A DNA stretch of 64,000 nucleotides, from assembly GCA_965250285.1 (NCBI GenBank), contig OZ252299.1, forward strand, positions 595,825 to 659,824. Reading direction: 5' to 3'. Below the pieces are notes generated by a model, which worked only from the letters and a program-made list of their open reading frames with translations, ran no database searches and had not been told where the DNA came from. This stretch comes from Myxococcota bacterium. Its GTDB lineage: Bacteria; Myxococcota_A; UBA9160; UBA4427. Positions 1-51,592 of this stretch are shown here, piece after piece; positions within the stretch are counted from its first letter, which is position 1; every line of letters begins with the position of its first letter. A program made the translations under genes and the position numbers.

Positions 1-666
1 GTACGTCGCCACGTGTACGCGGGCTTCGGTGAGCGGGCCGTGTTCGACCGCGACGGGACGGAGCGCGCGCCCGGATCGGGCGAGCGCGGGTTCGCCGGTG
101 GTCTCCACGTCGCTGGGATGATGCTGCTGGGCGCGCGGCCCTACGATCCGGCCATCGGTCGCTTCCTCGCGCCCGATCCCGTCGACCACGTTCTGAACGA
201 CTTTGCGTACACCCGCGGCAACCCGGTTCATCTCTGGGATCCGGGTGGGACCCACGCGACGCCCGTCGGTGGCGCGCCCTCGCAGACGCCGGCCGGACAG
301 GCCACGGTGACCGTCGGGGTCGGCTTCATGGCGATGGGGGCTTCGATGGCCGGCAACGCCGTGGCCGCCGGACCGCTCGCTGGGCAGTTCACCGCCACGG
401 GCGTGATCATCTTCGTCGGGGGCGTGGTCTTGGTGTACGTCGGCACGGCCATGCTCGACTCGCCGGATCCGCCGACCATGGCGCCCCCCGTGCCCCCACC
501 GGCCGAATCGACCGATGCCCTGCCCGACGGTGACCTCGGCAGCGGATCGACGTGTTCTCCGGATGCGTTCCGACCGCGCACATCCGGGACGCCGCGGGCG
601 GTGATCTGGCTGCTGCTCCTCGCAGCGGTCGTCGGCCTCATGCGCCGCGCCGAGGTGAGCGGCTAG
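1..666 (+). CDS. RHS repeat-associated core protein, C-terminal part (5'-truncated by window edge)
   Basis: Frame 1 is open from base 1 (VRRHVYAGFGE...). RHS core motifs LGARPYDPAIGRFLAPDPV and YTRGNPVHLWDPGG (PxxxxDPxG) are followed by a ~140-aa extension with hydrophobic segments. Confidence 0.85.
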   Translation, partial: VRRHVYAGFGERAVFDRDGTERAPGSGERGFAGGLHVAGMMLLGARPYDPAIGRFLAPDPVDHVLNDFAYTRGNPVHLWDPGGTHATPVGGAPSQTPAGQATVTVGVGFMAMGASMAGNAVAAGPLAGQFTATGVIIFVGGVVLVYVGTAMLDSPDPPTMAPPVPPPAESTDALPDGDLGSGSTCSPDAFRPRTSGTPRAVIWLLLLAAVVGLMRRAEVSG

Positions 667-706
667 CGCGGTCGTGCGGGCGTCACCGGCGCGTTCGGTC
701 GGCCGC

Positions 707-1597
707 TCACGGGCGTGCACGCCGCCAGGCGGTGTGCACGACGTGTGCGGCCGACCAGAACAGGTAGGTGGCCGGTGAGAGGACGGCCCTCGAGACGTCG
801 ACGATCGACGCCGGCCAGGCGCTTGGCGCGCCGAGCACGGCCATCGCACCCAGGCACAGCGCCAACGTCGGTGCATGCAGTCGCAGCAGCGCGATGAGCT
901 CGCTGCGAAGCCGGCCGCGCGCCCGGGCCCGTGCCACGATCAGGATCAGCCAGCTCACGAGGTGATGCAGCGTGACCGCCGCGATCACGTCGGTCGCGTC
1001 GATTCGCGGCGAGAGATGAGGCGCCGCGAGCGCGAGCAAGCTGAGTCCGGCGGCGATCGCTGCGTCGGCGAAGAGGTCGCTTCGCCGCGTCGAGAGCGCC
1101 GCGATCGGCAGCGCGTCCTCGGGGCTCGACCGCCGCAGCGCGCGATCGTTCTCGACGGTGTGCCACGCCGACAGGGCGAGCAGACCCAGGGGCAGCGCCG
1201 GCGCGAATTGGCAGAGCTCGACGTAGGCCGCATACCCGGTGGCGAGCGTCGCCAGGGTGCCGAGCTTCGCGGCCGCCGCACGCGGGGGCTGCGCCGATGC
1301 AGGCCGGCGGCCACGCACGACGCTCGCGAGCAGGTGGCCGTAGCCGAGCGCGAAGACGACGTGCGAGTGGAGCGCGGCGCGGGCTTCGTTCTCGGGCTCG
1401 AGCCAGAGGCTGGCCGCCACCCAGCTCGTGGTCGCCGCGAGGGAGGCCTGGCTGATCCGCCGCCCGGCCGAGCCGGGTCGGCCGGGCGGGGTCGAACGGC
1501 TTCGGCTCGGGCGCTCGCGCCGCCATCCGAGGAAGGACCGCACGGAGCGTCGCCCGCTGCGCACCAGACGGTTCGCCCCGTTCGAGCCGGTGCGCAT
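707..1597 (-). CDS. Uncharacterised multi-pass membrane protein with several His-containing motifs
   Basis: 3' part of ORF 707..2179. ATG at 1597 overlaps the upstream CPBP stop (TGATG). Several hydrophobic segments carry LGYGHL, WHTVEND, LHHLVSW and FWSAAHVVHT. Confidence 0.65.
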   Translation of the reverse strand: MRTGSNGANRLVRSGRRSVRSFLGWRRERPSRSRSTPPGRPGSAGRRISQASLAATTSWVAASLWLEPENEARAALHSHVVFALGYGHLLASVVRGRRPASAQPPRAAAAKLGTLATLATGYAAYVELCQFAPALPLGLLALSAWHTVENDRALRRSSPEDALPIAALSTRRSDLFADAAIAAGLSLLALAAPHLSPRIDATDVIAAVTLHHLVSWLILIVARARARGRLRSELIALLRLHAPTLALCLGAMAVLGAPSAWPASIVDVSRAVLSPATYLFWSAAHVVHTAWRRARP

Positions 1598-2211
1598 CAG
1601 AGCGCGGCCGCGTCGAAGCGCGGGGCGACGACCGCCACATTCAGGCCGACGTGCAGCGCCGTGCAGGGCGAGACGCGCCTCGTGGCCAGCCAGACGAGGC
1701 CGAGAGCGAGGCCGGCAAGGAAGGTGCCGAGCATCCGCACCGGCGTCGCGTGGGGCAGGGCGAAGCACGCCGCGCTCACCACGACCGCCGCCCATCGACC
1801 GACGCGCGGTTCGAGCGCGGCGAGCAGCCGACCCCGGTACAGCCACTCTTCGAATGCGGGCGCGAGCGCGAGGCATGAGACGAGCTCGAACGCACACGGC
1901 GCTGCCGCGGCGTCGAGACGGGGCGTCGCGCCGGTCGCGGCGACGAAGGCGTACCACGTGGCGGCGCCGAGGGCGGGCTGGATGGCGACCCCGACCCACA
2001 TGAACGCGAGGGCCTGGCCGATCAGACGGGTGGGGCATCGATGGCTCGGTTCGACGCGTGGGCACCGATGCGCGATCCAGCCCAGCGCGATGGCGAACGA
2101 GAGGGCGACGCCGATGCAGCCGGGCCATGCGAGCTGAACCAGCGCGAGCTGGCACCAGACGACGCAGACGAGGACGCACGTGGCGCCGAGTCGGGGAGGG
2201 GGCGTGGGCAT
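1597..2211 (-). CDS. CPBP (Abi/CAAX) family intramembrane glutamic endopeptidase
   Basis: Motifs APAFEEWLYRG, FALPH and LHVGLN in a hydrophobic protein. Start uncertain (ATG 2211 preferred; ORF open to 2265). Confidence 0.85.
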   Translation of the reverse strand: MPTPPPRLGATCVLVCVVWCQLALVQLAWPGCIGVALSFAIALGWIAHRCPRVEPSHRCPTRLIGQALAFMWVGVAIQPALGAATWYAFVAATGATPRLDAAAAPCAFELVSCLALAPAFEEWLYRGRLLAALEPRVGRWAAVVVSAACFALPHATPVRMLGTFLAGLALGLVWLATRRVSPCTALHVGLNVAVVAPRFDAAAL

Positions 2212-2241
2212 CACGCCCGTCGACGAAGCAAGCGCCGCGCC

Positions 2242-2329
2242 AAGCGCGACGCGGTGCAGCGCCAAGCGCGGCGCTGTGTCGCGCTTGGCGCGACGCTGTG
2301 TCGCGGCAAGCGCTGCGCTGTGTCGCCGG
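2242..2329. repeat. Four imperfect tandem 22-bp repeats (consensus ~AAGCGCGACGCTGTGTCGCGCC)
   Basis: Units start at 2242, 2264, 2286 and 2308. CGCTGTGTCGC occurs exactly at 2272, 2294 and 2316. Confidence 0.8.
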
Positions 2330-2362
2330 GGAAGCGCGGTCGCGGGCTCACCTGTCCTCGAG

Positions 2363-2388
2363 CGGGCGTGAAACGGCGTTCACGCCCG
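2363..2388. other. Perfect 10-bp inverted repeat downstream of xth (terminator or operator)
   Basis: CGGGCGTGAA-acggcg-TTCACGCCCG; no U-tract on the minus strand. Confidence 0.45.
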
Positions 2389-2447
2389 GCGCCGCGCGCG
2401 ATCCGTAGGGCACGGTTCGAGGCGGGCCGCCCGAGGCCCGCGGTGCT

Positions 2448-3248
2448 TCAGCCGAAGATCGCGGGGTCGACGTCGACGCCGATTGGACAGTGGTCACTGC
2501 CCATGACGTCCATGTGGATGAAGGCGTTCTTCACGAACTTCATCGCGGCGGGCGAGGCCATGACGTAGTCGATGCGCCAGCCGACGTTGCGCTCTCGCAC
2601 GCCGAAGCGCTGACTCCACCACGAGTAGTGGCCGCCTGCGGGCTCGAACGCGCGGAACGTGTCGATCCAGCCGGCGTCGATCCAGCGGTCGAGCTCGGCG
2701 CACTCTTCGGGCAGGAACCCGCTGGTCTTGCGGTTGTCCTTCGGGCGGGCGAGGTCGATCTCGCGATGCGCCGTATTGAAGTCGCCCATCACGATCACGC
2801 GGTAGCCGCCGCGCCGCAGGCGCTGGAGCTTGTCGAAGAGCGCTGCGTACCAGTCGAGCTTGTAGGGCACGCGGCTGTTGTCGCGATCCTGACCACTGCC
2901 GTTCGGGAAGTAGCCGTTGGCGACGACCAGGCGGCCGAAGCGCGCGATCTGGACGCGCCCTTCGGCGTCGAAGCGATCCTCACCGAGCGAGGTGTCGATG
3001 GCATCGGGCTTGCGCTTCGAGAAGAGCCCCACGCCGCTGTAGCCCTTTCGTTCGGCGGACGACACGTGCAGGTGGTAACCGCGCACGTCGGCCACCTCGT
3101 CGGGAATCTGCTCGCGGGTCGCGCGCACCTCCTGGATCCCGACGATCTCGCCGCGGCTGGCTGCGAGCCAATCGGCGAAACCCTTCTTGTGCGCCGAGCG
3201 AATGCCATTGACGTTCCACGAGTAGATGCGGGCGGCGCGGGGTGCCAT
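2448..3248 (-). CDS. xth: Exodeoxyribonuclease III
   Basis: SWNVNGIRS, IQEVRA, YFPNG, MGDFNTAH, YSWWSQR, GWRIDY and SDHCP motifs. Confidence 0.96.
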   Translation of the reverse strand: MAPRAARIYSWNVNGIRSAHKKGFADWLAASRGEIVGIQEVRATREQIPDEVADVRGYHLHVSSAERKGYSGVGLFSKRKPDAIDTSLGEDRFDAEGRVQIARFGRLVVANGYFPNGSGQDRDNSRVPYKLDWYAALFDKLQRLRRGGYRVIVMGDFNTAHREIDLARPKDNRKTSGFLPEECAELDRWIDAGWIDTFRAFEPAGGHYSWWSQRFGVRERNVGWRIDYVMASPAAMKFVKNAFIHMDVMGSDHCPIGVDVDPAIFG

Positions 3249-50013: not shown

Positions 50014-50490
50014 TCAGCCGTACTGGACCCCGATGATCTCGAACTCGCGTTCGCCCTTCGGCACGCGCACGACCACCTCGTCACCGGGCTCCTTGTGCAT
50101 CACCGCTCGGGCGACGGGTGACGTGACCGAGATCTTGCCGGCCTTCGCGTCGGCCTCGTACTCGCCGACGATCTGATACGCGACCTCGTCGCCCGACTCG
50201 ACGTCTTCGAGCTTCACCGTGGCGCCGAATCGCACCTTGTCGCCGGGCTGATCGCTGTTGTCGATGACCTGGGCCAGCGCCACGCTGTTCTCGAGCTGCG
50301 CGATCTTGCCCGCGATGAGGCCCTGCTTCTCTTTGGCCGCGTGATACTCGGCGTTCTCTGAGAGGTCGCCGTGGGCGAGCGCAGCCTCGATCTCCTTGAT
50401 GTTCTCGAGTCGGTCGACCGACTTCAGCTGCTGGAGCTCGGCCTTGAGCGCCTCGAAGCCGTCGGGTGTGATCGGGATGCGATCGGCCAT
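50014..50490 (-). CDS. greA: Transcription elongation factor GreA
   Basis: HGDLSENAEYHAAKE, VRFGATV, ISVTSPVARA. Confidence 0.96.
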   Translation of the reverse strand: MADRIPITPDGFEALKAELQQLKSVDRLENIKEIEAALAHGDLSENAEYHAAKEKQGLIAGKIAQLENSVALAQVIDNSDQPGDKVRFGATVKLEDVESGDEVAYQIVGEYEADAKAGKISVTSPVARAVMHKEPGDEVVVRVPKGEREFEIIGVQYG

Positions 50491-50839
50491 CTTGCAGTCG
50501 GGTCCTTGCGCTGGGCGCCGCCTCGGGGCGCCGGTGGTCTATTCTGCGGCCCATCTCCGAACGAGCCGAGCGCCGTGCTCGGGCGACGGTGGGAGCGTGT
50601 GGCCGTCGGGAGAGCGCCCCTCGTCGGGATCGGCCGGCGTCGTGTCTCGAGCCGGCACTGCGAGGCGCCGCAGCGACTCGCATCGACCCCGTCGGATGTC
50701 GTCCGTTCGGTGGGGGCGTACGGGAATCAGGAAAGTTAGGCCCCCGGCGGGGACGGGTCAACGCCGCCGGGCCCGGCCGTTCGCTCGGGGGCGAACGGAC
50801 CGCCTCCCTGACCGGGTGGGCAGCGCAAAAGGAGCGGAA

Positions 50840-51592
50840 TTGACCGAGGACCGATTTTCGCCGCAGCCGAGCGGCCTCGGCGAGCAGCCCACGGAATCGG
50901 CCAGGGGGACGCCGCCGACGATCTCGGCGCCACAGCGCCGCGCGGAGGCACCGGGGCCGGCCGAGCGGGGGAGCCGCCTGGTTCGGCTCGCCGTGCCCTT
51001 CTATCTCATCATGGCCGGTGTGGCATGGCTCTGGCGCGCCCTGGTACGGGGGGAGCCGATCTTCTCGGCACCGGGCGTCGAGCCGGCGGCGATCTGGCCG
51101 CTCGACGAGGCCATCGGCGCCGGCGCCGCGCTGGGGCTGGCGGTCGTCGCGGCGTCGGCGGTCTGGACCCGCTGGCTGCCTTCGGGCGAAGCCGTCTCGC
51201 GTTACCTCGGCCAGGCGATCGGGCGCATCGGTCTCGGCGCCACGACGCTGCTGGCCGTCGTGAGCGGCCTCGGTGAAGAGATGCTCTTTCGCGGCGCGCT
51301 TCAGCCCGAGATCGGCCTCGTGCTCGCGTCGATCGGCTTCGGCCTCGCCCATCTGGTTCCGCGCTGGCCGATCGTGCTGTGGAGCCTGTACGCGATCGTG
51401 ATCGGGTTCGTGTTCGGCTGGGCGTTCGAGGCGAGCGGCAGCCTGTGGGTGCCCGTCGTCGCACACGCCGTCGTGAACGGCATCAACCTGCCGATCCTGT
51501 CGCGTCGCTACGGGGGTGTGGATGCGCCGGGGTCAGGCCTCGTCGACGATGCGCGCGACGGCGTCCATCTCGACGAGCGCACCCAGCGGTAG
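50840..51592 (+). CDS. CPBP family intramembrane glutamic endopeptidase (myxosortase-like)
   Basis: SGLGEEMLFRGALQ, FGLAH and VVAHAVVNGINL; TTG start after AGGAG. Confidence 0.85.
   Translation: MTEDRFSPQPSGLGEQPTESARGTPPTISAPQRRAEAPGPAERGSRLVRLAVPFYLIMAGVAWLWRALVRGEPIFSAPGVEPAAIWPLDEAIGAGAALGLAVVAASAVWTRWLPSGEAVSRYLGQAIGRIGLGATTLLAVVSGLGEEMLFRGALQPEIGLVLASIGFGLAHLVPRWPIVLWSLYAIVIGFVFGWAFEASGSLWVPVVAHAVVNGINLPILSRRYGGVDAPGSGLVDDARDGVHLDERTQR

Follow-up and report, generated by a model that had tools for sequence, protein, structure and literature searches.

We analyzed a window of 64,000 nucleotides, i.e., the whole stretch C1:595825-659824 (contig OZ252299.1, assembly GCA_965250285.1) of the 6.25-Mb single-contig genome of an uncultured bacterium labelled Myxococcota. 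The window opens with the end of a gene for an RHS protein, followed by two convergent genes, one encoding a membrane protein of an unnamed family (hereafter X) and the other a CPBP/Rce1-like glutamic intramembrane protease. We consider it probable that the RHS lipoprotein, the CPBP protease, and X form a dedicated system of Cys-type C-terminal sorting or processing with a single client. We read them in this way because they show every attribute of such systems that can be assessed from sequences. A search of the literature retrieved no paper describing an RHS/CPBP/X system.

The tagged tail of the RHS protein

The RHS core of the protein ends in NPVHLWDPGG. It is followed by two hydrophobic segments, a Pro/acidic linker, and a GSGSTCS motif, and the tail ends with a membrane helix and two arginines. 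These elements had been listed in a preliminary description of the first 666 nucleotides, and the translation of frame +1 bears them out: the frame is open across positions 1-666 from the first base, with the stop codon at 664-666. The elements of the gene that lie in the window are the following.

1-666, plus strand: last 221 codons and stop codon of the RHS/YD-shell lipoprotein (open reading frame (ORF) of 1192 aa, genome positions 592912-596490)
52-249, plus strand: RHS-associated core with self-cleavage motif (TIGR03696, E 6.3e-12, 45.8 bits for a cut-off of 32.5)
142-165, 172-183, and 235-249, plus strand: core motifs YDPAIGRF, PDPV, and WDPGG, respectively (DPGG codons at 238-249)
289-456, plus strand: Gly/Ala-rich hydrophobic helical hairpin (hydropathy peaks; helices at residues 1068-1093 and 1095-1123 of the AlphaFold2 (AF2) model)
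316-372 and 400-456, plus strand: two hydrophobic Gly/Ala-rich segments
457-552 (also delimited as 460-552), plus strand: Pro/acidic low-complexity linker, predicted to be disordered (predicted local distance difference test, pLDDT, of 20-45 for residues 1121-1176)
553-663, plus strand: C-terminal tripartite tag, composed of C-S-P (Cys1156), a 16-residue spacer, a helix, RR, and AEVSG
553-555, plus strand: Cys codon of the motif GSGSTCSP
601-642, plus strand: membrane helix VIWLLLLAAVVGLM, followed by RR at 643-648

The AF2 model predicts the terminal helix beyond the disordered stretch and gives moderate confidence to the helices of the hairpin (block-mean pLDDT of 57-76). We surveyed 61 genomes of the same family and order as the window genome, all labelled Myxococcota, and found a full-length relative of the RHS protein in 39 of them, usually one per genome, at 35-57% identity. 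Hydrophobic segments, one or two in number, stand 15-60 residues past the DPxG motif in 32 of 34 orthologues and precede a low-complexity linker, which is G/S/P-rich and of variable length. In the alignment of 22 tags, C-[AS]-P is invariant, position +5/+6 is hydrophobic, 14-18 residues separate the motif from the helix, and an Arg cluster is present. Most tags have P-L-Q inside the membrane helix and RRRR after it. Hence, the invariant Cys, the helix, and the basic cluster of a Cys-type tripartite tag are all there, the window copy having RR and no P-L-Q. This layout recurs in orthologues that are 33-57% identical to the window protein, and its recurrence in those of only 33-39% identity indicates that it is not a product of chance. 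The preliminary description had proposed a sorting-type tail of Cys, membrane helix, and Arg in place of a toxin with its immunity gene. This is supported by the orthologues, in which the Cys and the helix-Arg ending are conserved, and by the absence of matches to toxin families given below.

Some homologues lack the signal or carry another one in its place. Other Cys tags were found on orthologues, either CG[LIV]GFE followed by a helix and RRRR (loci L053, L060, L064, and L065) or GGCG types (L004 and L059), and orthologue P0006 has no tag. Two genomes deviate from this pattern. The match to the RHS orthologue in G020 (L022/L051) has one in-frame TGA, and its frame stops soon after the hairpin, leaving it tagless; this genome has no X. 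The RHS gene of G031:C10 is fragmented, with X kept on another contig.

We searched the 41,598 ORF ends of the window genome with a hidden Markov model (HMM) of the C[AS]P tag. The RHS protein was the sole match (E 3.7e-11, the next one being at 0.085), and a tblastn search of the tail against the same genome gave no paralogue. The C[AS]P tag has one client in this genome. Other types of tails are found there. Outside the window, at genome positions 4139580-4144646 on the minus strand, an ORF of 1689 aa ends in LCGLGAELAFIVPVLIAARRRLRRRA. This ending, CGLG[FA]E followed by a helix and RRR, is of the kind that replaces C[AS]P on RHS orthologues of other genera, and it may be a second uncatalogued Cys-type signal. 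The genome also has around 72 ORF ends resembling PEP-CTERM (VPEP, helix, RRR) and no canonical myxosortase; the organism would therefore rely mainly on a system of the exosortase type.

The RHS gene starts at genome position 592912, i.e., 2913 nucleotides before the window. The N-terminus of the protein reads MPRRSSFGRAVLGVWVVGVCLIAGIGC/QG, which is a lipoprotein-type Sec signal with a lipobox, and such a signal is present in about 30 of 34 orthologues. The client thus has an N-terminal signal peptide, one of the two upstream features to which the preliminary description had pointed. Of the other one, linkage to PAAR or VgrG, no sign was found: the Pfam scan of the full 1192-aa protein gave RHS repeats (PF05593, E 1.5e-28) as the sole domain and no PAAR, VgrG-binding, or toxin domain. 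The RHS shell has a pLDDT above 90 for most of residues 30-1055 in the AF2 model. Its closed beta-shell fold matches those of RhsA, Tse5, Tse15, RhsP, and a teneurin-like protein (Foldseek E of 1e-37 to 1e-45). The protein is thus of the RHS/YD-shell type, having both the PF05593 repeats and the closed shell that they are predicted to form. Its sequence also has the two-Asp self-cleavage motif (DPxG-x18-DPxG type). The pattern YDPxxGRFxxPDP...NPVxFWDPxG is kept in all 34 orthologues, and D1030, D1051, and G1054 are invariant in an alignment of 25 sequences (A3). As the aspartyl motif is conserved in orthologues, self-cleavage is probably retained in this RHS family.

In the closest relatives, the RHS gene is found in the same housekeeping neighborhood (an xth-like gene, speA, and hisS), with the order rhomboid-like, PNPOx-like, RHS, X, CPBP, xth-like, speA, hisS. 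A search for related loci with the RHS protein returned only an unrelated RHS from Erwinia. Identities of shell and tail across orthologue comparisons were 66 and 48%, 58 and 35%, 55 and 31%, and about 38 and 18%, respectively. The identity of the tail thus falls gradually, with no abrupt swap as in polymorphic toxins. There is no identifiable C-terminal domain that varies between close relatives, and no co-oriented immunity gene directly downstream, the neighbors being convergent. Of the usual trafficking modules (PAAR, VgrG, type VI secretion system (T6SS), Tc partner) none was found, the protein showing only RHS repeats and its lipoprotein N-terminus. By its sequence, the RHS protein is not a polymorphic toxin but an envelope protein that this uncultured lineage has conserved in near single copy.

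The CPBP-X pair and its association with the tag

The preliminary description had noted that the next gene is convergent and that no co-oriented immunity gene follows. This is correct, as minus-strand genes lie 40 nucleotides away, but it had set this neighbor aside. We found that the convergent genes are key evidence for the sorting reading, because the presence of the pair co-varies with the type of tail across the genomes compared. The two genes are the following.

707-1597, minus strand: gene X, polytopic His-rich membrane protein of 296 aa from an unnamed family, convergent with the RHS gene across a 40-nucleotide gap
1597-2265, minus strand: CPBP/Rce1-like glutamic intramembrane protease of about 222 aa (start codon uncertain; PF02517, E 3.8e-17)

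The TGA stop of the CPBP gene overlaps the ATG of X (TGATG), which makes the two genes translationally coupled. A scan for promoters and terminators in window positions 500-2600 gave nothing. The catalytic motifs of the protease (EExxxR, FxxxH, and HxxxN) show no variation among 32 cassette CPBPs. In the window genome, which has around four CPBP-like ORFs, the HMM of the cassette CPBP gives 195 bits to the cassette copy and 37 bits to the next CPBP. One CPBP-like ORF of 415 aa lies within the window (approximately 50345-51589, plus strand), where it is unlinked to the RHS gene; the HMM of the cassette CPBP gives it 29.5 bits and Mrt_core 21.5 bits.

Protein X has no match in Pfam or NCBIfam. 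Ten of its residues are invariant in 33 sequences (G54, H57, H115, E118, N119, H181, H210, P244, H254, and R262), and its AF2 model has nine helices and a pLDDT of 92. Foldseek revealed no significant match to folds of the PDB (best E 0.33), and for this reason a function cannot be assigned to X from its structure. Its family is small, occurs in single copy, and was confined to this order in a search of 151 genomes of the class. It comprises 243 clusters among 1.84 billion representatives, and four of these, all metagenomic proteins, are CPBP-X fusions. Another metagenomic member, P0144 (646 aa), is fused C-terminally to an alpha/beta-hydrolase domain (PF12146, PF00561). This fusion hints that X works on a substrate of the ester or lipid type.

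We scored the linkage of the cassette with locally built HMMs over 40 RHS loci. The cassette CPBP is at most about 3 kb from the RHS gene in 21 of them, and X follows in most of these. The probability of finding a CPBP gene there by chance is well under 1%, since the genome has just around four CPBP-like ORFs. The adjacency takes at least five different arrangements, given here with their loci.

Convergent: window, L002, L006, L038, L040-L043, L050, L057
CPBP, X, RHS in this order: L047, L048, L061, L094
RHS, CPBP, X in this order: L063, L095, L098
RHS, CPBP in this order: L056, L058
RHS, X, Lgt-like, CPBP in this order: L055

CPBP and X remain in tandem also at loci where they are not linked to the RHS gene (L085-L090, L092, and L093). 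The presence of X also follows the type of tail, in counts that ignore the kinship among genomes.

RHS protein ending in C[AS]P: X in 27 of 29 genomes
RHS protein with another tag or none: X in 1 of 10 genomes
No RHS protein (sampled genomes): X in 0 of 5 genomes

The change can be seen within one genus, where G043 has both the tag and the cassette and G051 has neither. The putative enzymes are thus linked to their client by the adjacency in 21 of 40 loci and by the co-occurrence of X with the tag.

Further genes accompany the cassette in part of the order. A divergent Lgt-like gene lies in or beside the CPBP-X/RHS cassette in other families (L047, L055, L056, L061, L088, L089, L092, L094, L095, L098, L099, and L003), and two of the Lgt-like copies pass the cut-off of PF01790. 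In the window genome and its own family, the only lgt is the housekeeping one, located at 3.44 Mb in the window genome, and the cassette has no Lgt-like gene. Apparent fusions of X with the Lgt-like protein in L055, L088, and L089 were rejected, as they are adjoining genes in different reading frames. The genes upstream of the RHS gene are, in the window genome, PNPOx-like, rhomboid-like/TPR, DUF3604, and GT2, the second of which has the following coordinates.

L007:8668-12066 (genome 588667-592065), plus strand: rhomboid-like/TPR protein of 1132 aa (PF01694, E 1.6e-5, a weak match; TPR repeats)

In 11 loci of the same family, the position of the rhomboid-like/TPR gene shortly before the RHS gene is conserved, including loci where CPBP-X is now elsewhere. 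The GxSG and His motifs are not evident in its product by eye, and the alignment with GlpG is very weak. A GspD secretin above the cut-off is present in the window genome. Since this is the secretin of type II secretion, a route to the surface is possible.

Comparison with known systems and other explanations

Tripartite C-terminal sorting signals share a set of attributes that has been listed by Haft (2023, bioRxiv 10.1101/2023.06.07.544157). In dedicated systems, a client encoded beside its enzyme takes the place of the requirement for many clients (10.1101/2023.06.07.544157). In the same work, four signals that contain a Cys are associated with CPBP proteases, and modification of the Cys is proposed to precede cleavage. 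The Cys-type signals are MYXO-, JDVT-, Synerg-, and CGP-CTERM, and their link to CPBP proteases is recent (Haft 2023; PMC11980579). Cleavage of TraA by MrtX was shown by Sah et al. (mBio 2025, PMC11980579), who describe the lipidating enzyme as not known and name Lgt as a candidate.

The preliminary description had connected the tail to MYXO-CTERM and JDVT-CTERM. The connection holds for the type of layout and fails for membership in any NCBIfam -CTERM family. By HMM, the C[AS]P tag is outside all four named Cys-type families. A system close in organization is JDVT-CTERM/MrtJ, which also has an invariant Cys, a helix with conserved residues and Arg, one client per genome beside its CPBP gene, and a proposed order of Cys modification followed by cleavage on the C-terminal side of the Cys. 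The C[AS]P system shares the trait of a single client beside its CPBP protease. It differs by the motifs, C-[AS]-P and P-L-Q in contrast to a JDVT motif with D-P in the helix, and by the scores, since the JDVT-CTERM model has no match and the CPBP protein has 32.9 bits for a MrtJ cut-off of 75. It also has the additional partner X, the Lgt-like protein in sister families, an RHS shell as client, and a tag placed past a self-cleavage site. Moreover, JDVT-CTERM/MrtJ is found in Pseudomonadota, whereas the C[AS]P system is in genomes labelled Myxococcota.

With MYXO-CTERM/MrtX (PMC11980579), the system shares a tripartite Cys tag after a disordered region, a CPBP protease, and an available type II secretion route. 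The spacing between Cys and helix is also similar, 14 residues in the tag of TraA (PMC11980579) and 14-18 here. However, MYXO-CTERM has dozens of clients and an unlinked housekeeping protease, whereas here there is one client with a linked protease, and neither the many clients nor MrtX, MrtC, or MrtP of that system were found. TIGR03901 gives no match, and Mrt_core is below the cut-off in the window genome (best score of 21.5 bits for a cut-off of 100), which thus has no canonical myxosortase. The idea that a canonical myxosortase serves the other tag types was rejected because Mrt_core is below the cut-off in 13 of 14 relatives.

Several observations weigh against a sorting system. No NCBIfam -CTERM model matches the tail, the last 48 residues alone, or the tails of nine other orthologues, and MYXO-CTERM (TIGR03901) has no match in the same set at E up to 10, although the filters of HMMER may drop very weak matches to such short tags. 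The matches of the CPBP protein to MrtJ, MrtS, and Mrt_core are all below the cut-offs. The tag is a weak version in the clade of the window, where P-L-Q has been lost and just RR is kept, and the tail diverges faster than the shell. The cassette does not adjoin the RHS gene in about half of the loci. The association of X with the tag has exceptions, all in incomplete assemblies: G017 and G018 have C[AS]P tails without X, and G121 has X without an RHS match. Finally, the counts behind this association take no account of kinship.

One could instead regard the tail as a membrane-active toxin, whose hairpin would depolarize membranes like Tse5-CT and for which the CPBP protein (of the "Abi" type) and X would provide immunity. 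T6SS RHS effectors encapsulate C-terminal toxins, and Tse5 of Pseudomonas aeruginosa is a pore-former (PMC10684867, PMC9637101). The likeness is substantial: the shell is a closed one of around 1000 residues whose nearest matches are T6SS RHS effectors, including Tse5 (Foldseek E of 1e-41 to 1e-45), and the conserved aspartyl motif would release a C-terminal fragment as in toxin-carrying RHS proteins. This fragment is hydrophobic and helical, with a hairpin predicted in 32 of 34 orthologues that is similar in kind to membrane-active cargo such as Tse5-CT, and CPBP/"Abi" proteins have been tied to bacteriocin self-immunity. These last two points also count against the sorting system. Yet the tail has no sequence similarity to Tse5-CT or to any other solved chain; the search of PDB sequences gave no Tse5 or other toxin, only chance antibody matches, and the NCBIfam and Pfam scans gave no glycine-zipper, holin, or toxin family. 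Where the T6SS effectors have PAAR, VgrG, and T6SS delivery, the protein has a Sec lipoprotein signal, and its gene is near single-copy, in housekeeping synteny, and not followed by an immunity gene in the same orientation. A sorting-type tag closes the tail, which is not polymorphic among close relatives, its architecture being constant over the whole order. The cassette follows the type of tag and not the hairpin, as shown by L053, L059, and L062, where the hairpin occurs with another tag and without the cassette. The supposed immunity genes vary in position and orientation, and what the CPBP-X fusions and the Lgt-like partner suggest is a series of enzymatic steps. Hence, we find a toxin unlikely.

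We give a similarly low probability to a plain unprocessed anchor, in which the helix and RR would keep the tail in the inner membrane, perhaps along with the shell, while CPBP-X acts elsewhere, tied to the RHS protein only through shared regulation of the envelope. The helix with RR does obey the positive-inside rule, the window tag is devoid of P-L-Q and of most Arg, and the cassette is unlinked from the RHS gene in genus g17. But nothing in an anchor of this kind calls for C-[AS]-P to be invariant and to stand at a fixed distance from the helix, or for polar or Pro residues to be conserved within the helix. It also leaves unexplained the presence of X in 27 of 29 genomes with the tag against 1 of 10 with another tag or none, and the repeated adjacency in different arrangements. 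Inherited gene order without function, combined with a likeness of the tails that is only compositional, would account for the synteny of the whole region in the closest relatives. We consider this explanation very improbable, as the adjacency outlasts at least five rearrangements, CPBP-X fusion proteins exist, tag and cassette switch together within one genus (G043 and G051), and the tag is unique in the genome. A dedicated Cys-type sorting system thus remains our preferred reading.

Proposed processing and implications

Under a dedicated sorting system, the precursor would be exported by Sec and lipidated at Cys27. The last helix would act as a stop-transfer anchor, with RR in the cytoplasm and Cys1156 facing the periplasm. 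The shell would fold and the aspartyl motif would cut after WDPGG, freeing a tail of 138 residues. Cys1156 would then be modified, probably with a lipid, by X or the housekeeping Lgt in the window genome; in the sister families, the Lgt-like paralogue encoded in the cassette would be a further candidate. The CPBP protease would cut on the C-terminal side of the Cys and thereby remove the anchor formed by the helix and RR. This would yield a hairpin peptide that ends in a lipidated Cys and possibly stays with or inside the RHS shell, which would itself be held by its own N-terminal lipid. Because the tag sits beyond the self-cleavage site, the processed product would be the hairpin peptide and not the shell. 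The preliminary description had left a choice between a tethered shell and a membrane-inserting cargo with its own anchor, and the conserved self-cleavage motif would favor the cargo.

This order of events recalls CAAX processing in eukaryotes and archaea, where an enzyme associated with the membrane modifies a Cys near the C-terminus and a protease of the Rce1 family then trims what lies beyond, prenylation of the Cys preceding the cleavage by Rce1. In contrast to CAAX processing, the processing here would take off an entire membrane helix on the periplasmic side, and X has no fold match to any solved structure. Three features of the putative system are unusual: a client with an RHS shell, a tag on the predicted self-cleavage fragment, and an additional membrane protein, X, that appears to be obligatory. 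Since X is His-rich, has nine predicted helices, is coupled to the CPBP gene, and is sometimes fused to its product, it is a candidate for the modification of the Cys. We propose, as a rather speculative extension, that the modification of the invariant Cys in Cys-type signals, ahead of cleavage by the CPBP protease, might be carried out by X, as the enzyme itself or as one of its essential subunits.

If X does modify the Cys, the RHS shell would carry a new sort of cargo, a self-released hairpin peptide anchored by a lipid at its C-terminus, and this would give bacteria a counterpart of the CAAX pathway, with a single RHS client at its center. The locus is compact, has one client, and offers concrete genes, the CPBP-coupled X and the Lgt paralogue, as candidates for the missing step of Cys lipidation. 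It would also widen the known uses of RHS shells to a conserved housekeeping lipoprotein exported by Sec, whose self-cleaved fragment would bear a sorting signal.

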